Shown here: positions 47,347-58,244 of the stretch, one piece after another
Layout: every line of letters starts with the position of its first letter
Numbering within the stretch: position 1 is the stretch's first letter
DNA from: an uncultured Gemmatimonadaceae bacterium
Lineage (GTDB): Bacteria > Gemmatimonadota > Gemmatimonadetes > Gemmatimonadales > Gemmatimonadaceae
Length of the DNA stretch: 64,000 bases
Assembly: GCA_963716745.1 (NCBI GenBank)
Contig: OY970320.1
Span: 1,120,001 to 1,184,000, forward strand
Reading direction: 5' to 3'
Translations under genes and position numbers: made by a program
The notes under the pieces: model-generated
What the model was told of the DNA's origin: nothing
The model's database searches: none
Seen by the model: only the letters and a program-made list of their open reading frames with translations

Positions 47347-48226
47347 GCGAAGCGCCGCTCGGCGCGCATTGCAGCACCGCGGGCGGCGGCACGACCACCG
47401 CGCCGCCCCGCGCCAAACTCATCAAGGCCACCGCGCTGCAGCTGTTCACGAAGGCCGCGAGTCGCTGGCAGGAGCGCGAGTGCGACGCCGCCGAGATCAC
47501 GGAGTTCAAAGCGCAGCTCGCGCTCACCGATGTGCGCGTCACCATGGCGCACGATTCGTATCTCATCAATCTCGCGAGCCCCGACAAGACGCTTCGGCGC
47601 CGAGCACCGAGAGCTTCGTTGCGGAATTGCGGCGGTGCGAACAACTCGGCCTCACCTATCTCGTGAGTCACCCGGGCAATTTCATGGACGATCGCGCGAG
47701 CGGGCTCGCGCGCAACGCCGACGCGATCGCGGAGGCGCTCGAACGCGCGCCGGGCCGCACGGTGCTCTGCCTGGAGACGACCGCCGGCAGCGGCACCGCG
47801 CTCGGCGCCACCTTCGAGGAGCTGGCCGCGATCATCGCGCGGCTCCCCAAGGCTCAGCAGAAACGCGTTGGTGTGTGCGTCGACAGCTGTCACGTCTACT
47901 CGGCGGGCTACGATCTCGTGAAGGATTACGACGGCGTGTGGGCGCGCTTCGACGACGTGCTCGGACTTTCGCGCCTGCGCACCATGCACCTGAACGACTC
48001 CAAGACCCCGTTCGCCAGCCGCCGCGACCGTCACGAGCTGATCGGCGAGGGGTCGCTGGGGAAGAGGCCATTCCAACGGATCATGACTGATCCGCGTTTA
48101 GCGGGTGTCGCGAAGGTGATCGAGACGCCGAAGGGCGATGATCACGCGAAAGCCGACGGGAAGATGCTGAGGAGGCTTCGGGGGTATGCGCGCGGGCGCA
48201 GCTTCGAGTCGGTAGAGCAGACCTAG
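47343..48226 (+). CDS. nfo: Endonuclease IV, frameshifted
   Basis: LGAHCS.AGG, HDSYLINLASP, HPG, LETTAG.G, DSCH, HLNDSK, DRH, ETPK. Confidence 0.92.
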
Positions 48227-48302
48227 ACGCTAGACCTAGACGTTAGACTACTCCCGCAGCCGCAGTTTTATGCTAACGTCTAGGTCTAGCGTCTAGGTCT
48301 GC
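48217..48302. repeat. Perfect 30-bp inverted repeat with TAGAC-periodic arms
   Basis: GCAGACCTAGACGCTAGACCTAGACGTTAG (48217-48246) and its exact reverse complement (48273-48302). Confidence 0.9.
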
Positions 48303-48306
48303 AGTT

Positions 48307-48334
48307 TTGACACGGGCTCTCCCAGCGCTACCTT
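48307..48334 (+). promoter_or_regulatory. sigma70 promoter, probably giving a leaderless transcript
   Basis: TTGACA-16 bp-TACCTT; ATG at 48341 begins 7 nt after the -10 box; no SD. Confidence 0.7.
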
Positions 48335-48340
48335 GAAAAC

Positions 48341-48694
48341 ATGCCTCGCGTGAGACCCCGACGCCTAAGAGTACTCTCAGCCGTACTGATCGCCGCGACC
48401 CAGTTCGCGGTCGTCGGGTTCGGGCCGCTCGTCGATGGCATCCAGGGTGCGAGTGCGCCGGCGCACGTCGAAGAGTTCGGCATCCATCTCCACTATTCGC
48501 ACGATCCCGACAATTGCGCCGCGTGTGCCGCGTCGCACATGGTCGGCGACTCGCCCCGCGTGCCGACGCCCGCGCTCCTGCTGGCGCCGCAGCGCGATGG
48601 GATCGCGATCGCGCTCGTCGTTCCCGCCGTACATCGCGCCGGCACTCCCAAGTCTCCGCGCGCGCCTCCCCGCTCCGCCGCCGCCGCTCGCTGA
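48341..48694 (+). CDS. CruR/DUF2946-like leader protein 1 (CxxC + RAPP arrest motif)
   Basis: Basic N-terminus, hydrophobic helix, HLHYSHDPDNCAAC, C-terminal PRAPP; upstream of a TonB-dependent receptor. Confidence 0.75.
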   Translation: MPRVRPRRLRVLSAVLIAATQFAVVGFGPLVDGIQGASAPAHVEEFGIHLHYSHDPDNCAACAASHMVGDSPRVPTPALLLAPQRDGIAIALVVPAVHRAGTPKSPRAPPRSAAAAR

Positions 48695-48839
48695 ATCCAG
48701 CTGAGCGCCACTGACAATTGATCGCGCGCTCGCTGTGGCCCTTTTGGGGCTCCGCTCGGCGCATCCCAATCTCGGTCTTTCGGCGGAGCCGCATTCGCGT
48801 GCGCCTCCGGGGGACTCGCACATATGCCCGGAGCGATCC

Positions 48840-51202
48840 ATGTCCAGCAGAACACTCGAACGCGTCCGTCAGCTCGCCGGCCTCGCCGCGTGCCTGGCGT
48901 TCGCACTCTTCGTCCCCTCGACCGCGCATGCCGCCGTCGATCCCGATAACTCCGATGTGAGCGGCACCGTCACCGATTCCGCCACCGGCCAATCGCTGCA
49001 AGGCGCGCAGATCAGCATCCTCGACGGCCAGCAGCAGGTCGTGTCCCGCGTGCTCGCCGACGCATTCGGACGGTTCGTGATCCACAACGTGAAGCCCGGG
49101 CAGTATCTCCGTCCTGGTGCGCTTGATCGGCTTTCGCCCGGAGGACCGCCCGATCGAGTTGAAGGACGGAAGGAACGTCTCGCTCTCGTTTAAGCTGGCC
49201 GCAGTCGCCGTCACGTTGCAGTCGATCTCCGTGGCGACTGCCGTGCCGATCACCATCGACACGCGCAGCGGCGTGCAGGTCTTCCAGCAGGATGAGTACC
49301 ACGGCTCGCCCACGAACACGACGTCGCAGATCCTGCAGCAAGCGATCACCGGCGCGGCACGCGCGCCCACGGGAGAGGTGCATATCCGCGGGCAACACGC
49401 GGAATACACCTACTACCTCGACGGCATTCCCGTGTACCCCGGGATCTCCGGCAGCCTCAATGAACTGTTCGATCCGTCCATCGTCGATCGCATCTCGTTC
49501 ATCACCGGCGGCTGGGACGCAGAATACGGCAATCGCAACACCGCGATCGTGAACGTCGCCACGCGCGTTCCTGTCGGCGCATTCCACATGGGCGCGTCCG
49601 CCTATGGCGGGATCGTACAACAGCAATGGTCAGACGTTCGACCTGAGCAGCAGCAATGGCACATGGGGATTCTTCGGCGCCGCGACGCGGCAGGTCACGG
49701 ACATGCGGCAGTATCCCGTGGCGTTCGACACGAGCCAGCTTCAAACCATTCAACTACAGCAATCACGGCGAAGATCTCTTCGGCTTCGGCAAGATCGAAT
49801 ACTCGCCCGGCGACGCGGGATCAGCTGTACCTCGAGGGGAACGCGTCCACCACCACCTTTCAGATCCCGTTCGACTCATCCACCGGCATCATCGACGACC
49901 ATCAGAACGACAAGAACAGTTTCCTGAACTTCGGGTGGCACCACCTCACCGGCTCGCCGCAAGCGGGACCGGATCGAACCCGGCGGCGAAATGTTCACCG
50001 GACTCTTCTACCGGAAGGGGTCGCTCCTCTACACACCGGGCGAGAACGACGATCCTTCATTCATGTTCTTCCCCGATACGACGCCGTACAACCTTCACGA
50101 GGATCGCAATTTCCAGAGCTACGGCCTCACGGCGAGCTATGCCTGGCGCACCGGTCACATGTTCTCGTTCAAGGTCGGTGCGCTCGTCTCGCAGACGACC
50201 GGCCACGAATCGTTCACCTCGGTGGATTCTCTCGGGAACGCCGGGCCGGCGTCGAATGCCGATCTCAACGGCAGCGATGTGGATGGCTACGCGCAGACGG
50301 TGATCGCGCCGTCGGAGTGGCTCGATTTTCACCTCGGCGTTGCGATACGACAACCACGCGGCGCCATTCGCCGGCCACCAATCCCAGTGGAGCCCGCGCG
50401 TGCGCGTCAATTTCTATCCCAGCGCGGGCAGCACGATCTATCTCTACTACGGCCGGCTCTTCATGCCGACCAACGTGGAGGACCTGCGAACCATCACGAG
50501 CGTCGCCGACTCGGGCGTCGTCACCGCGCCAACGCTGCCCGAGCGCAATGATTTCTACGAGATCGGCTACGTGCAACGCGTCGCGATTCGGCGTGCTCAA
50601 GTTCTCCGGCTACCACAAGCAGAGCACTCCCGGGATCGACGACCAGACCGTGCCCGGCTCCGCGATCGTCACATCGGTGAATCTCGCGTCGGTGCACATC
50701 ACGGGCCTCGAAGCTACGTTCGAGGTCCGGCCCGCCGGACCGTGGTCAGGGCTACGTGAACTTCTCGATCAATCATGCATACGGTCGCGGCCCGATCACC
50801 GGGGGCTTCTTCCCGGTGGACTCCACCGGCGTGCCGGGCAACTGGTTCGATCTCGACCACGACCAGCGGATCTCGTCCGTAGCTTCGGTCGTGTATTCGG
50901 GAAAGCGCTGGTTCGCCAGCGCATCGGGAACGTACGGCACCGGGCTCACGAACGGCGCCGAGATCACGCAGCCGATCGGCACCGGGTTCTTCGATTTCAA
51001 CCGCGACATCCACGTCGCGCCGAACTTCATCACGACGCTGAGCGCCGGTTATACCTGGCTCTTCGGCAAGACCGTACTGCGCCCGGTGCTCTACATCGAC
51101 AACGTCTTCAACTCGCAATATCTCCTCAAGGGGCAATTCTTCAGCGGCGCTTCGGCAGGACGGCCGCGCACCGTGCAACTGCAGGTGTCGGTGAATCTGT
51201 AA
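48840..51202 (+). CDS. TonB-dependent receptor with N-terminal carboxypeptidase-regulatory-like domain, several frameshifts
   Basis: Signal peptide, VSGTVTDSATG, plug HIRGQH...YYLDGIP...ITGGWDAEYG, C-terminal IDNVFN..Y...GRPRTVQLQVSVNL. Confidence 0.88.
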
Positions 51203-51228
51203 CGAACGGGCCGGCTGGCGCGTTTTAC

Positions 51229-51311
51229 CTACAGACTGAGACGTTAGACTTAGACGTTAGAAGGCTACGACTCCCGCATTCTAAGTCTCAGTCTAAAGTC
51301 TCAGTCTGTAG
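51229..51311. repeat. Imperfect inverted repeat with AGAC-periodic arms
   Basis: CTACAGACTGAGACGTTAGACTTAGACGTTAGAA ... TTCTAAGTCTCAGTCTAAAGTCTCAGTCTGTAG. Confidence 0.8.
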
Positions 51312-51315
51312 TGTT

Positions 51316-51344
51316 TTGCCAACCCGGAACCAGCCAGGTAGCTT
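51316..51344 (+). promoter_or_regulatory. sigma70 promoter, probably giving a leaderless transcript
   Basis: TTGCCA-17 bp-TAGCTT; ATG at 51351 begins 7 nt after the -10 box. Confidence 0.65.
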
Positions 51345-51350
51345 GATAGT

Positions 51351-51720
51351 ATGAAGCCCATGAATCCGCCGCCGCCGATCCCGACTCCGCGTCCTCGCCG
51401 CCGCCCTCGTGGCGGCGTCGCAGTTCGCGGTGTCGGCGTTCGCGCCGATGGCGGATTCCGGGGCCGGCAACAGCGCGCCGTCGCACGTCGAGGCGTTCGG
51501 CGTGAGCCTGCATTTCGCGCACAATCCCGACGATTGCGCGGCGTGCCTGGCGCAGTCGATCATCGGCATCACGTCGCACGGGTCGGCGACGATCGTCGCC
51601 CAGGACGCCGCGACATCCGAGTTCGACGCGGCCGCGCCTGCGGCCGCCACGCGCATCGCCTGGAGTCCCGGCGCTCCGCGCGCACCTCCCGCCCCGCTCC
51701 GCGCGCGCCTCAGCAGCTGA
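51351..51720 (+). CDS. CruR/DUF2946-like leader protein 2 (CxxC + RAPP), 1-nt indel near 51363
   Basis: The frame of 51409 extends upstream as RRRRSRLRVLAAALVAASQFAV, homologous to leader 1; LHFAHNPDDCAAC; PRAPP. Confidence 0.72.
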
Positions 51721-51824
51721 TCTGAGCGCGCCCGCCGGCCATCGTGCCGGCGCCAAGCCGACCGCACGCCGCACCGCCGCCGCGATAGTCGCGGCCGCAC
51801 GGCGCGCGCCGACATCACGGAGAC

Positions 51825-53244
51825 ATGCGCATTCCATCGATCACTCGCCGCGGCTTGGGGCCTCATCGCCCTTCCGCTCGCGGCTCAGCAGTCCGACTCC
51901 ATCGCCCGCGCCTTGCACGTCGCGGACTCGATCGCGCGTTGGCGCGCCGATTCCGCGAACGTCGCCAAGGAGCGTCAGCGCATCATGCACGAGCCGCGCG
52001 CGCACCCGCCGGCTCCGCTGCCGCCACCGCCGATCCGCCTCACGAAACAGCAGGCGATCGACAGCGCGCTCGCGCACAATCCCACGATCGTGATCGCGCG
52101 CGAACAGGTCGCGCAGGCGAACGCGCGCGTCACGCAGGCCACCGCCTTCCCCGACCCCACGCTCGGCTTCACGGTGCAAGGCGTCGGGCGCGCGATCAAT
52201 CCGCACCCCGCATTCGAGACCGACATCATCGCCGGCTTCACGATCCCCTTCCCGCAGAAGTTCTGGCTCCACGGGCAGGCGGCCGACGGTGACGTCGGGA
52301 ATCTCGAGGCGGCCTACCGCACGCAGCGCGCAGGTGATCGCCACGGAAACGGCGCAGGCCTACGACTCGCTGCTCGTCTCGCTGAAGCACCGCGACGATC
52401 TGCTGCTCGCGCGCGCACTCTCGCAGGATTTCCTCAAGAAGACGCAGGCCCGCTTCAACGCGGGCACCACCGCGCGACTCGACGTCGTGAAGGCGCAGGT
52501 CGGCGTCGCGCAGAGTGGAGAACGATCTCATCGCGAACGAGCGCGGCGTCGCGCAACGCGCGCGCCGCGCTCAACCGGCTGCATCGGCCGCATCCTCGGC
52601 GCGGGCATCGACGCGGTGGACACGCTCGCGATCGTGCCCGTTCCCGAGGACTACGACCGGCTCCAGCAGGTCGCGATGGAGCATCGCCCCGAGCTCGCCG
52701 GCATCGAGCGCCAGATCGCGGCGGCGCACTCCGCCGAGAAGCTCGCGCAGCAGTACTACTTTCCCGACCTCAACGTGAGCTTCCAGCACAACGATCCGTA
52801 CGGCGTGCCCGGGCCTGCCCGTCATGAGTTGGACCAGCGGCGTCGGCATCAGCGTCCCGCTGCTCTTCTGGCAGCACCAGAACGGCGAGGTCGCCGAGGC
52901 GAAGCATCTCGAGCTCGAGCTCGCCGCCACGCAGCGCGACGTGTTCGCGCAGGTGGAGCAGGACCTCCGCAACGCGTACTCCACCGCCACCACGAGCTAC
53001 CGGCAGGCGGTGTTCATTCGCGATGAGCTGCTGCCGTCCGCGCAGGAGCAATACGACATCGCATTCAAGACGTACAGTCTGGGCGGCGCGAGCTGCGCTC
53101 GAAGTGATCGACTCGCAGAACGCCTTGCTCGACGCGAAGAACCAGTTCGCTACCGCGCTCGGCGCGCTGAATGATGCCGTCGCCGACCTGCAGCGCGCCG
53201 TCGGTGCGCCGCTCGACACCATGCCTTCGGACACCCGCCAATGA
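51825..53244 (+). CDS. TolC/CzcC family outer membrane efflux protein, frameshifted
   Basis: LT..QAI..ALAHNP, RFNAG....LDV, AM.HRPEL, YFPDL and GISVPL motifs across frames. Confidence 0.85.
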
Positions 53245-54414
53245 GTGATCACATCATGCGGCACGCCGCGCGCGTCATCCTCCTCGCGGCCATCGCCGGC
53301 GCGGCCGCCTGCTCGGCGAAGAACGAGCGCGGCGAACGGCGCCGGCCGACAGCAGCCGCGCCGGACGCAGCGCGCCGCTGACGCTCTCGCCCGACCAGCG
53401 CGAGCACCTGACGCATGGTCCCCGTGACCATGGAGAGCTATCGTCCCACGATCGCAGACCACGGGCACCGTGGCATTCGACGGCGAACATCTCCACGCAG
53501 GTGCTCGCGCCGATCTCCGGACCGGTGCTGCGGCTGCTCGTGGAGGTCGGCGCGTCAGGTGAACCGCGGCGATCCGCTCGCGCTGCTCTCGTCGCCCGAC
53601 TTCGCCGCGGCGGTGTCCGCGTACCGCAAGGCGCAGGCGGCGGCGCTGCAGACGAAGCGCGTCGCCGATCTCAACGCCGAGCTCTTCAAGGCCGATGGGA
53701 TCGCGAAGCGCGACCTCGAGCAGAGTCGAGGAGGACGCCGAAGCCGCCGCAGTCGGACCGCGACGCCGCGCTCCAGCAGCTGCGCGCGCTCGGCGTGGAC
53801 TCGGTCACGATCGCCGCGCTGCAGGATCCGAAGAAGAGCGTGCCGGTACAGGCGTACATTCGCGCGCCGATCGCCGGCACCGTGGTGGAGAAGCTGATCA
53901 CGCCGGGCCAACTGCTGCAGGCGGGCACGACGCCGTGCTTCACCGTGGCCGATCTGTCGCGCATGTGGGTGCTCGCGAACGTATTCGAGTCGGACCTCGC
54001 GTTCGTCTCGCCGGGGGACAAGGCGCAGATCACCGGCGCGGCGCTGCCGCATCCGCTCACGGGCGTCGCGATCTACGTCGCGGCGCTGGTGGATCCCTCG
54101 ACGCGCGCCACCAGCGTGCGCATCGAGGTGCCCAACACGGGGCGCGTGCTGCGGAAGGACATGTACGTCGAAGCGGCGATCCAGTCGTCGCGCACGATCA
54201 AGGGGATGCTCATTCCCGTCTCGGCGGTGCTGCGCGATGACAACAACCTGCCCTTCGTGTTCGTGGAGAGCGACCGAAGGGCACGTTCTCCCGCCGCGTG
54301 GTCACGCTGGGCAACAGGCTCGGCGACCGCTACGAGGTGAAAGACGGCCTCAAGGAAGGCGAACAGGTGACGGCGGAGGGCGGGCTCTTCCTCGAGTTCG
54401 CGCAGGGCCAGTGA
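53241..54414 (+). CDS. RND periplasmic adaptor (CzcB/CusB-like), frameshifted
   Basis: IRAPIAGTVVE, ADLSRMWVLANVFE, VDPSTR...VRIEVPN....LR..MY. Confidence 0.85.
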
Positions 54415-57400
54415 GCCGGCCGGAAGTACCGAAGGATCGCGCCGCTCACACGGCGAGCTTCGTCAACTACCTCGTGGCGGCGGCGGTCGACCAATGGCCG
54501 ATCGTCGCCTTCCTCGCGCTGCTGTTCGTCGGCGTCGGCATCTGGTCGTTCCTGCGCCTGCCGGTGGACGCGTATCCCGACCTGTCGCCGCCGATGGTCG
54601 AGATCATGACGCAATGGCCGGGCCACGCCGCCGAGGAAGTCGAGCAGCTCATCACCGCGCCCATCGAACTCTCGATGAACGGCGTCCCGAATCTCAAGGT
54701 GATGCGCTCGATCTCGCTCTACGGCCTCTCCGATGTGACGCTCACCTTCCGCGACAACACCGACGATTACTTCGCGCGGCAGCGCGTGTTCGAGCGGCTG
54801 CCCGACGTCGCAGCTGCCAGAGGGGATCACGCCGAGTGTGTCGCCGCTCTTCTCGCCGTCGGGGCTCGTGTACCGCTACGTGATCGAGAGCAAGGACCGG
54901 AGCGCGATGGAGCTCAAGAACATCCAGGACTGGGTGCTCGAGCGCCAATACCGCTCCGTGCCCGGCGTGGCCGACATGAGCTCGCTCGGCGGCGAGACGA
55001 TGCAGTACCAGGTCGTGATCGATCCGGTGCGGCTCGCCGGCCGCGGACTCACGGTGCCCGCCGTCGCCGCCGCGCTCTCCGCGAACAACAGCAATGCGGG
55101 CGGCGGGTTCTACTCCGAAGGCGGCCAGTTCTACTACGTGCGCGGGCTCGGCCGCATGGCGACCACCGAGGACATCGGGCGCACCGTGGTGGCCGTGAGC
55201 AACGGCACGCCCGTGCTCGTGAGAGACATCGGCGAGGTGGTGATCGGCGCGGCGCCGCGACTCGGGACAGTTCGGCTTCGACAGCGTGAACGACGCCGTC
55301 GAGGGCGTGATCCTCATGACGCGCGGCGAGCAGGCACAGGTCGTGCTGAAGAAGGTGCAGGCCAAGACGACCGAGTTGAACGACTCGCTCTTGCCGAAGG
55401 ACGTGCACATTCGCCCCTACTACGACCGCAGCGAACTGATCGCACTCACCACACGCACGGTGGAAGACAACTTGCTGCGCGGCATCATCTTCGTGCTCGT
55501 CGTACTGATGTTCTTCCTGTACGACGTGCGGTCGGGGCTGATCGTGGCCACGACGATCCCGCTCTCGCTGCTCTTCGCCTTCATCTGCCTCGATCTGCGG
55601 CACGTGCCGGCCAATCTCCTCTCCATCGGCGCGATCGACTTCGGCATCATCGTCGACGGGGCCGTCGTCATGGTGGAGAACATATTCCGCCAGCTTTCCG
55701 CACGGCGTGAGGAAAAAGACGTGAGCGTGCGTGAAGTCATCATCGCCGCCGCCGCGGAGGTGGACCGGCCCGATCCTGTATGCGGTGGCGGTGATCATCG
55801 CGGGATTCCTGCCCATCTACGTGCTCGCGGGCCCGTCGGGCACGCTGTTCCGCCCGATGGCCGATACGACGATCTTCGCGTTGATCGGCTCGCTCCTCCT
55901 CACGCTCACGCTGCTGCCCGTGCTCTGCTTCTTCGTGCTCGGCGGCCATGCGCGCGAGCGGCACAATCCGGGCTTCGAGTGGATCAAGCGGCACTACACG
56001 CGCGGCCTCGACTGGTCGATGCGAGTACCCATGGCGCGTGATCGGCGGTTCTACGCTGCTGCTCGGCGTCGCGCTGGCGCTCATCCCGTTCATCGGCGCG
56101 GAGTTCATGCCCAAGCTCGACGAGGGCGCACTCTGGGTGCGTTCCACGATGCCGTACACGATCTCCTTCGAGGAATCGTCGCGCATCGTGCCGCAGATCC
56201 GCGCGGTGCTGCGCTCGTTCCCGATGGTCACCGTCGTGGCGGATGAGCACGGCCGTCCCGACGACGGCACCGACGCCACCGGTTTCTTCAATGCCGAGTT
56301 CTACGTTGGGCTCAAGCCCTACAACGAATGGACGGGACCGATCCGCACGAAGGCGCAGCTCATCGACAGCGTGGACAAGCGCCTCGCCTCGTTCACCGGC
56401 ATCACGTTCAACTATACGCAGCCCGCCGAGGATGCGGTGAACGAGGCCGAGACCGGTCTGAAGAGTTCGCTCGACGTGAAGGTGTTCGGCACCGATCTGG
56501 AGCTGCTCGAGAAGAAGGGGAACGAGATCAAGAAGGTGATCGAGGCGGTGCCGGGGATCACGCACGTGACCGTGGTGGAGGAACTGGGCCAGCCGAGTCT
56601 CACGATCAGCATCGATCGCGCGAAGACGTCGCGGTACGGCATCAACGTGGACGACGTGAACGGACTCGTGGAAGCGGCGGTGGGCGGCAGCGCGGCCACG
56701 ACCATCGTGCAGGGCGAACGGCGGTTCGATCTCGTGGTGCGTCTCAAGCCCGAGTCGCGCCGCACGCCGGAGGAGATCGGGCACATCCTGGTCGCGGCGC
56801 CCGGCGGACAGCAGATCCCGCTGCGCGAACTGGCCGACGTGCGCGTGAACAACGGTGCGTCGTTCATCTACCGTCAGGACAATTCGCGTTTCATCGGCAT
56901 CCAGTACTCGGTGGAGGGCCGCGATCTCGCGAGCGCCGTGCAGGAAGCGCAGAAGGCCGTGGCCGCGAAAGTGCGCGTGCCGCCCGGCTATCGCGTGCGC
57001 TGGGGCGGCGAGTACGAGGATTACACCGCGTCGCGCGACCAGCTGCAGTTCGTGCTGCCGGTCACGATCGTGCTCATCTTCCTCATCCTCTTCTCTCTGT
57101 ACAACAATTTCAAATTCCCCTGGATCACCGTGGTCGGCGTGGTGCTCTCGGGGCCGATCGGCGGGATCTTCACGCTCTGGCTCACCGGCACGCCGTTCTC
57201 GGCGAGTTCGGGTATCGGATTCCTCGCGTTGTTCGGCGTGTCCGTGCAGACGGCCGTCGTGTACATCTCCTATGTGAACGAGTTGCGGCGCGATGGCATG
57301 GACATCGTGCGCGCCACGCATGAGGCTGCGCTGCTGCGGCTGCGGCCGATCATGATGACGGCGCTCGTCGCCGCACTCGGCCTGCTGCCCGCCGCACTCT

Positions 57401-57543
57401 CCACCGGCGTCGGGAGCGATTCGCAGCGGCCCTTCGCGCTCGTGATCGTGGGCGGATTGTTCTCACGGCTCCTGATCAGTGTGTTCCTCATGCCGTCGCT
57501 CTATGTGGTGGTCGCGAAGGAGGGCGACCGCCTCGAGGTCTGA
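54411..57543 (+). CDS. CzcA/CusA family heavy-metal RND permease, frameshifted
   Basis: LPVDAYPDLSP, GAIDFGIIVDGAVVMVEN, EFMPKLDEG, RLRPIMMTALVA.LGLLP. Confidence 0.92.
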
Positions 57544-57590: not shown

Positions 57591-58244
57591 ATGAGCGAGC
57601 AACGGGCGATCACCGAGCGGGAAGTGCGCCGCCTCGCGCGCGACGGCGCGAAGATCATCGACGTGCGCGGCGCGATCGTGACGCCCGGTGCACGCTCGGC
57701 CGCGCGCGAGTTGGGGGTGATCCTCACCGGATCCGAAACGCCCACCTCCGTGCTCCCCATCCGCGCGTACGGTGCGTTCGACCCGAGACCGTTCGTGCCG
57801 AGCACCGTGGCGCTCGCGTGCGACCAGTCGGGCACGATGATCAAGGAAGCGGTGGCCGCGCGCCTCTATCAGTTGCAGCACACCGTGACCGATCTCGTGG
57901 GCCCGGAGAAATCGCTGCTCGAAACGACCGCCGCGGCGGTGCTCGTCGCGCGCGAAGTCTCCTCCGGCCGCGCCCGCTTTGGCGTCGTGGTGGATGGCAC
58001 CGGCGTCAGCGCGTGCATCGCGGCCAATAAGATCAAAGGCGTGCGCGCGGCGCTCTGCCACGATGTCACCACCGCGGTCAGCGCACGCGAACACTCGGAT
58101 GCGAACGTCCTCGCGCTCGCCGGTTCCCTCATCGGCCCCCGCCTCGCCACGGCCATCGTCGAGACGTTCCTCACGCGGGACTTCGTGCCGGAGCGCTACG
58201 CGGCTCGGCTCGAGAAGCTGAAAGAACTGGACGAGCAGAGATAA
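57591..58244 (+). CDS. RpiB/LacA/LacB family sugar-phosphate isomerase-like protein with N-terminal extension
   Basis: GTGV..CIAANKIKGVRAALC, AREHSDANVLAL. Confidence 0.8.
   Translation: MSEQRAITEREVRRLARDGAKIIDVRGAIVTPGARSAARELGVILTGSETPTSVLPIRAYGAFDPRPFVPSTVALACDQSGTMIKEAVAARLYQLQHTVTDLVGPEKSLLETTAAAVLVAREVSSGRARFGVVVDGTGVSACIAANKIKGVRAALCHDVTTAVSAREHSDANVLALAGSLIGPRLATAIVETFLTRDFVPERYAARLEKLKELDEQR

Follow-up and report, generated by a model that had tools for sequence, protein, structure and literature searches.

A 64,000-nucleotide stretch of DNA from an uncultured Gemmatimonadaceae bacterium (contig OY970320.1, positions 1,120,001 to 1,184,000; the window below) carries two short open reading frames (ORFs) in tandem, each placed ahead of metal transport genes. 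Leader 1 precedes a TonB-dependent receptor, TBDT1, and leader 2 precedes genes for an outer membrane factor (OEP), a periplasmic adaptor (MFP), and an RND pump of the CusA/CzcA family, as an earlier note on this DNA had correctly recognized. Judged by their sequences, both leaders belong with the arrest-peptide sensors of the CruR/CutF (DUF2946) kind, as a remote offshoot within Gemmatimonadota that lies outside formal Pfam membership. In relatives, the pump genes exchange places behind the leader with a porin-ZnuAB cassette, and zinc is most likely the sensed metal. The best reading, held tentatively at a little under an even chance, is that both window modules are on at low zinc and that the pump removes competing cations. 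The core features are as follows.

48341..48694, + strand: leader 1, 117 amino acids, with H42/H51/H54, C59xxC62, R107APP, and an N-terminal hydrophobic helix; predicted DUF2946-like arrest sensor
48695..48839, + strand: spacer 1, 145 nt, which in free mRNA is predicted (minimum free energy fold) to base-pair with the segment encoding RAPP
48840..51202, + strand: TonB-dependent receptor TBDT1 with an N-terminal carboxypeptidase-regulatory domain, in several frames here and in one frame in G004 and G005
51351..51720, + strand: leader 2, about 122 amino acids, with CAAC at 51535 and RAPP at 51679; its ATG lies in another frame here, and the G004 copy is intact
51721..51824, + strand: spacer 2, 104 nt, with stacked hairpins and a ribosome site, homologous to the pre-Znu spacer of the congener G003
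51825..53244, + strand: TolC/CzcC-type OEP, with a signal peptide and N-terminal extension common to the porin of the G003 Znu cassette
53241..54414, + strand: CzcB-type MFP
54411..57543, + strand: ZneA-like RND pump of the CusA/CzcA family, with the DFG..DGA..VEN motif kept and the CusA methionines absent

Both leader ORFs are real. CAAC starts at 48515 and 51535 and RAPP at 48659 and 51679, which gives the 48-codon distance stated in the earlier note. Their N-terminal halves are related, as had been claimed (27 of 50 residues identical, E 5e-20), and their linkers are unrelated. Overall, leader 1 and the intact G004 copy of leader 2 are identical at 49 of 117 positions. A six-frame scan of the 3.29-Mb genome (G000) found an upstream CxxC and a near stop for 49 of 1897 RAPP/RGPP words, and among these only the two window ORFs have a spacing of 48. 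They are also the only leaders found by an alignment-profile search of G000. The claimed length of about 120 amino acids holds for leader 1, which is open, but the ATG of leader 2 (51351) is out of frame with its CAAC and RAPP in this assembly. The break points to an assembly error, because the G004 ortholog is a single open frame and the TonB, OEP, MFP, RND, and nfo genes of the window are likewise spread over several frames. A true frameshift was rejected on the same grounds. The N-terminus of leader 1 is basic and then hydrophobic, with a predicted helix at residues 6-34. An AlphaFold model of the leader (predicted template modeling score, pTM, 0.44) consists of helices alone, with metal-site geometry absent.

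The leader profile was built from 26 aligned members, in all of which RAPP and CxxC are invariant. It retrieved 979 representatives at 50% clustering. Leader matches occur in at least 95 of 301 Gemmatimonadota genomes, a lower bound since 14 candidates were scored per genome, in a tally that includes G012. Across 107 sequences, C59, C62, P109, and P110 are invariant, and conservation reaches 90% or more at Q21, H42, V43, E44, G47, H51, H54, R107, and A108. The CxxC-RAPP spacing, whose loss in relatives would have spoken against the proposal of the earlier note, is 47-49 codons in 95 of 99 CxxC leaders (RAPP motif sought 40-60 codons from CxxC). In another 19 leaders CxxC is absent, replaced in most by CxxH or HxxC-like variants. 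Single-Cys or CxxxxC variants with extra His residues were seen at L237, L153, L227, L229, and L238; in the first four of these, the last Cys lies 49-50 residues before RAPP, which suggests that the second Cys, or an equivalent ligand, sets a distance ruler.

A hidden Markov model search against DUF2946, proposed in the earlier note, gave a divided answer: the window leader falls below the PF11162 cut-off, but homology is reached through its relatives. Leader 1 scores 10.1 bits (E 1.4; cut-off 23.7 bits), and a PF11162 search of the genome found nothing at either leader locus. Direct Pfam and NCBIfam scans of the window leaders returned nothing significant (LpqS, E 0.75). PF11162 is matched at E <=10 by 17 of the 26 aligned members (best 3.6e-5). 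Among the 88 near-full-length profile homologs of the 150 listed, 32 match at E <=0.01 and four exceed the cut-off. One neighboring Atlas cluster is 11% PF11162. The idea of a CruR-like nascent-peptide metal sensor is thus supported by inference from the invariant motifs, the spacing, and the DUF2946-reaching homologs. No transcription factor was recognized in the neighboring ORFs, as had been noted, but the genome does encode members of the Fur, DtxR, and CsoR families at other loci. In another genome, G007 (99% complete), no Fur-family gene was found and three leader or TBDT1 loci are present; the role of Zur may fall to arrest leaders in its group.

RAPP peptides, including CruR, arrest the ribosome when their first Pro occupies the P site (PMC10951233; PMC12992588). 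CruR of Bordetella pertussis (Bp2923, PF11162; PMC9426467; PMC12992588) is, like the window leaders, the first gene of an operon and has CxxC, a C-terminal RAPP, an export signal (a candidate one here), a downstream TonB receptor, and a long spacer. Its CxxC-RAPP gap is 45 intervening residues, plus or minus one or two (PMC9426467), against 44 in the window leaders. Unlike CruR, the latter fall below the Pfam cut-off, stand before zinc-type targets, have a predicted leaderless mRNA, and occur as two tandem copies. CruR acts through Rho, whereas folding in the window family favors ribosome-site occlusion. In CutF of Rhodobacter capsulatus (PMC9973294; 10.1101/2025.02.05.636593), a stall opens a stem-loop over the downstream ribosome site, a layout that folding favors across the present family but gives unstably for the window's own modules. 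CutF differs in its CxxxC motif and in a stall that is brought on by metal. In the CutF-like collection, which includes CzcI, the genes most often found next to a leader are OEP/RND and TonB, as they are here; the accessible text on that collection mentions neither ZnuA-type neighbors nor exchange of pump and importer cassettes. In the Caulobacter operon CC2720-czrCBA-zntA (PMC4176598), a DUF2946 gene heads a divalent-metal RND operon, as here. That operon is activated by Zur in zinc, and a cassette swap is not described for it. A leader ahead of an exporter is not new, as it has already been published (PMC9973294; PMC4176598). A leader before a TonB receptor is also published, and cassette exchange was not found in print. 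Literature listings and abstract openings yielded no account of this branch in Gemmatimonadota, of a leader of this type that senses zinc, or of pump/ZnuAB exchange, and the large supplementary lists of Roy 2022 / Ozturk 2023 may include these proteins.

The earlier note had recommended a survey of gene neighborhoods. All 120 leaders with readable downstream DNA (126 rows minus three frame fragments, two contig-end leaders, and G012) head one of four operon types, as classed by tblastn to chosen references: OEP-MFP-RND (34), porin-ZnuA-(ZnuC)-ZnuB (33), TBDT1 (24), and a second TonB type (29). No copper gene stands behind any of the 120. Two receptors of the second TonB type were tested; one is best on ZnuD, the other on a haem receptor and then ZnuD, both below cut-off. 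No solved structural relative of TBDT1 was found. The ABC binding protein belongs to PF01297 and has the three His ligand positions. Structures of ZnuA/AdcA rank top for it, with Mn proteins close behind. A His-versus-Glu rule separates Zn from Mn binding proteins. Because all leader targets are a TonB receptor, porin-ZnuA-ZnuB, or a ZneA/CzcA-like pump, zinc is favored over copper as the probable cue, and manganese or another divalent ion is a possible alternative.

The pump itself is canonical. Its intact orthologs score 846.6 and 888.9 bits against TIGR00914 (cut-off 701.45), and the DFG..DGA..VEN motif, which we take to be the proton-relay signature, is invariant among them. Its best structural relative is ZneA (PDB 4k0e), which has the same motif and to which the pump is nearer (E 1e-96) than to CusA (E 1e-68). 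The pump is acidic at the positions of D602, E610, D654, and D658 of ZneA, presumably ligands, and its residues aligned to the CusA methionine triad, at what we take to be the triad's positions, are not Met. It belongs to a clade distinct from the ZneA/CzcA pumps and often found behind a CxxC-RAPP leader. Orthologs in this clade are about 60-90% identical, against <=45% for other CusA/CzcA proteins, and occur in Gemmatimonadota, Acidobacteriota, Verrucomicrobiota, and some Gammaproteobacteria. A CxxC-RAPP-like leader, read by eye, precedes the pump in many carriers outside Gemmatimonadota. Within loci L155-L226, pumps of this clade in Acidobacteriota and Verrucomicrobiota follow leaders with CxxC-RAPP or CxxC-RPPP, and no such leader was detected at the Gammaproteobacteria loci. 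A plasmid search retrieved distant pumps only (<=43.6% identity). By the named relatives of its pump, the genome has its kin in Gemmatimonadaceae.

The pump and the Znu cassette share a slot, usually in the order nfo, leader, cassette, maeB. Within the window's genus, the slot holds the pump in G000, G002, G004, and G005 and porin-ZnuACB, behind an orthologous leader 2, in G003. Between G005 and G003, identity is about 60% from promoter through leader, spacer, start, and signal peptide to the N-terminal extension. A second genus provides another pair, G016 (pump) and G091 (Znu), in which the promoter is 82%, the leader 68%, the spacer 79%, and the signal peptide 83% identical, and the sequence afterwards 39%. 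In a quick tree, in which 49 of 96 forks are open, pump- and Znu-heading leaders interleave: G016 groups with G091 and G261 (support 100), and the pump leader of G092 is nested among 12 Znu leaders (support 98). No signature residues separating the two kinds of leader were seen. The tandem pair occurs in four of the five genomes of the window's genus, and since the window twins form one genus-level clade in the quick tree (support 89), leader 1 probably arose recently by copying of the slot leader. Tandem leaders elsewhere head pump and TBDT1 (G117, G038 with twins 58% identical, G082, L153), Znu and TonB receptor (G059, G192, G259, G295, G089), or pump and Znu (G224). At L183:3763-12400, the order is nfo, lone porin, leader, pump, which looks like a leader-pump insertion displacing ZnuA/ZnuB.

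The two cassettes rarely coexist. Among 80 leader-bearing genomes of our choosing, 36 have the pump (that of G271 counted from the neighborhood survey), 39 have ZnuA, one has both, and six have neither. In a draw of 197 genomes of the phylum, even at order level and without G000 and G012, the pump occurs in 53 (frameshifted pumps being missed at the threshold), ZnuA in 89, both in four (23.9 expected), and neither in 59; ZnuA is present in 85 of the 144 pump-less genomes. Both states are found inside at least 10 genera. Related genomes are not independent, so Fisher values exaggerate the exclusion. ZIP transporter genes, considered as a stand-in for ZnuA, are not discriminating, being present in both groups (66 of the 80 genomes).

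A mechanism can be proposed in which each leader would be translated from its own leaderless mRNA. The sites ahead of the leaders are as follows.

48307..48340, + strand: promoter-like site 1, TTGACA (48307-48312), 16 nt, TACCTT (48329-48334), 6 nt to ATG
51316..51350, + strand: promoter-like site 2, TTGCCA (51316-51321), 17 nt, TAGCTT (51339-51344), 6 nt to ATG

The sigma70 promoters described in the earlier note are visible by eye as -35/-10-like boxes at both sites, but a consensus promoter scan returned 0 sites. The leader mRNAs are probably leaderless, because a TAnnnT box stands 6 nt ahead of each ATG, as in other leaders: it lies 5-8 nt before the ATG in 43 of 81 leaders with an in-range ATG, compared with two of 99 starts of downstream genes and 0.85% of ATGs genome-wide. 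The ribosome would then stall at RAP/P, as has been demonstrated for CruR, ApdA, and ApdP, with the His/CxxC site, 48 codons back, outside the tunnel. In this position it would cover the two Pro codons and the tail, which would otherwise be base-paired to the downstream ribosome site, so that the stall would turn the downstream gene on; Rho-based control may add to this step. Finally, metal binding would fold the site and release the stall, turning expression off, as CruR and the importer targets suggest. Taken jointly, these four steps are highly probable in our judgment.

Evidence for the direction of the switch comes from folding, in which the energy to open the downstream ribosome site was compared between a leader's own 55 upstream bases and 12 foreign ones. 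The leader's own part occludes the site more than the foreign ones in 73 of 94 leaders. It exceeds all 12 controls in 38 of the 94, where about 7 would be expected, and 11 of the 32 pump leaders are among these. By class, occlusion is found for 29 of 31 porins, 14 of 19 TBDT1 receptors, and 10 of 12 receptors of the second TonB type. At spacer 1, the leader's own upstream part beats 12 of 12 foreign ones, while the opening energies of the free (12.4 kcal/mol) and stalled (12.0 kcal/mol) states differ weakly. Distinct hairpins in which the ribosome site is paired to the two Pro codons and the tail are predicted in the pump genomes G016, G035, G137, G294, and G315, and such hairpins are also seen in the Znu genomes G091, G261, G218, and G081. 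A Rho gene is present, and a mild C>G skew surrounds RAPP (class medians 0.19-0.31, uncontrolled). The models suggest that a stall means on, a signal that is strong for importers and weaker for the pump. Because folding favors a stall that turns genes on, and importers ought to be silent when metal is present, release of the stall by metal is expected, as in CruR.

The sign of the window's own pump we infer from the cassette swap. Since one set of leader, spacer, ribosome site, and signal peptide serves pump and ZnuAB in congeners, the pump would be made at low zinc, and there is a somewhat better than even chance that it has the same sign as the importers. The two modules would then form one low-metal program, in which the pump would most plausibly clear competing divalent cations from the periplasm. 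The cells concerned would be without a selective ABC importer, and their uptake would run through the TonB receptor and ZIP-type transport. C. metallidurans, which is without ZnuABC and balances broad uptake by RND efflux (PMC11112998), is a loose parallel. The earlier claim that one locus controls uptake and efflux is partly supported: a duplicated sensor is likely, but opposite processes are doubtful, as the second leader of a congener heads a zinc uptake cassette, with homologous promoter, spacer, ribosome site, and signal peptide.

Several points weigh against a pump that is on at low zinc. The shared spacer and signal peptide are clear in two genera only, with 33 pump leaders compared. 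Pump occlusion is weaker (20 of 32 against 29 of 31 for porins), reaches a per-genus p of 0.05 (on 29 pump leaders), and flips between near-identical congeners, G000 beating 12 of 12 controls and G005 none. Occlusion is absent from the pump leaders in G224 and G038, where 11 and 10 of 12 controls are as high. A direct duplex test gave a weak signal: only 18 of 96 leaders, neither of the window modules among them, rank in the top 10%, compared with 0 of 96 in the control. ZnuA is dispensable, because 59 of the 197 genomes have neither cassette, and exclusivity follows from one-slot replacement itself, with kin not independent. CruR and CutF answer copper with opposite signs, so the sign can flip within the family, and the Caulobacter czrCBA operon behind the DUF2946 gene CC2720 is zinc-induced (PMC4176598).

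These last precedents lend weight to the strongest rival, less probable but still plausible, in which the modules have opposite signs. Leader 1 would shut the importer at high metal, like CruR, and leader 2 would turn on an ordinary exporter, in a CutF-like manner or through rewired RNA, and the alternation of pump and Znu would reflect metal-rich and metal-poor habitats at an exchangeable slot. The canonical HME-RND pump with its intact proton-relay motif and ZneA-like acidic site fits this picture, as does the absence of occlusion in 12 of 32 pump leaders and in G224 and G038. Among CutF-like leaders, OEP is the commonest neighbor and CzcI heads czcCBA (PMC9973294). Opposite signs are harder to reconcile with the G016/G091 pair, which shares 79-83% of promoter, spacer, and signal peptide together with the anti-ribosome-site hairpin. 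Additionally, CxxC-RAPP spacing and core His/Cys ligands, read by eye, are not clearly different between pump and Znu leaders, and the leader-headed TBDT1 is kept more often in pump genomes (20 of 36) than in Znu genomes (11 of 39).

A third reading, improbable in our view, treats the RND complex as a starvation-induced zinc importer in which each part has a counterpart in the Znu cassette that it replaces: OEP for porin, adaptor for ZnuA, and pump for ZnuB. Its slot, leader, and signal peptide are identical in kind to those of the Znu cassette, and pump and ZnuA are near-exclusive in Gemmatimonadales. Outside Gemmatimonadota, ZnuA is found in seven of 50 pump carriers (50 of 54 such loci); in Acidobacteriota, it is found in five of 34 carriers against 79 of 151 genomes in a phylum draw (which includes G405). 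That draw, which was not class-matched, contains five pump carriers, one of them with ZnuA, and this tempers the comparison. The importer reading is further weakened by unchanged efflux motifs, by the absence of a precedent in the literature listings, ExsFGH having been considered as a candidate and left aside, by ZIP transporters that could cover uptake, and by the genomes with neither cassette.

It is very improbable that the leaders monitor protein export or outer-membrane assembly in the manner of SecM/Apd, with the Cys/His site secondary. An N-terminal hydrophobic helix is present, every first target is an exported outer-membrane protein, and RAPP peptides are known to monitor export (PMC10951233; PMC12992588). 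Against this stand the invariance of C59 and C62 and the conservation of the three His residues, the confinement of targets to metal transport, and variants that trade Cys for His yet hold the distance to RAPP. A copper cue is the least probable of all. Both characterized family members, CruR and CutF, sense copper, but none of the 120 leaders precedes a copper gene, the pump is without the methionines of CusA and more similar to ZneA, and the ABC cassette is of zinc type.

If zinc sensing is true, protein-based translational sensing reaches beyond copper; the CruR report states that no zinc riboswitch has been described (PMC9426467). The natural swaps G016/G091 and G005/G003 offer matched pairs that bear on how the sign of an arrest-peptide switch is determined. 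Should the pump be made when zinc is low, a widespread soil clade now annotated for heavy-metal resistance would serve metal acquisition, as filter or importer, and resistance counts from soil metagenomes would be misread. If the importer reading were true, a tripartite RND system would be run for uptake as a plug-in replacement of porin-ZnuAB.

Each module is also preceded by a periodic hairpin, which the earlier note had counted as a part of it.

48217..48302, no strand: 7-nt periodic hairpin 1, 30-nt perfect arms, z -10.8, copy of a genome-wide repeat
51229..51311, no strand: 7-nt periodic hairpin 2, second copy of the same repeat

This assignment does not hold, as the repeat spans the genome, with 63 clusters of BLAST hits in G000, half-arms included, and a regulatory role was rejected on that ground. 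No Rfam match was found for it. G000 carries several further periodic inverted-repeat families, with 415 inverted pairs (14-nt seeds).

Some minor observations concern the cassettes and their surroundings. Porin-ZnuA-ZnuB cassettes are often without an operon ATPase gene (L060, L061, L062, L067, L095, L106, and others), and their ZnuA frequently matches in two halves separated by an insert. In one Znu cassette, the porin-like gene at the front (L070:6535-7848, - strand) has no Pfam or NCBIfam match; its Atlas neighbors are nameless clusters, porins, and one auto-named zinc-regulated TonB receptor. In the window, the pump is followed by an RpiB/LacAB isomerase (57591-58244) with an extra N-terminal segment of about 70 amino acids.

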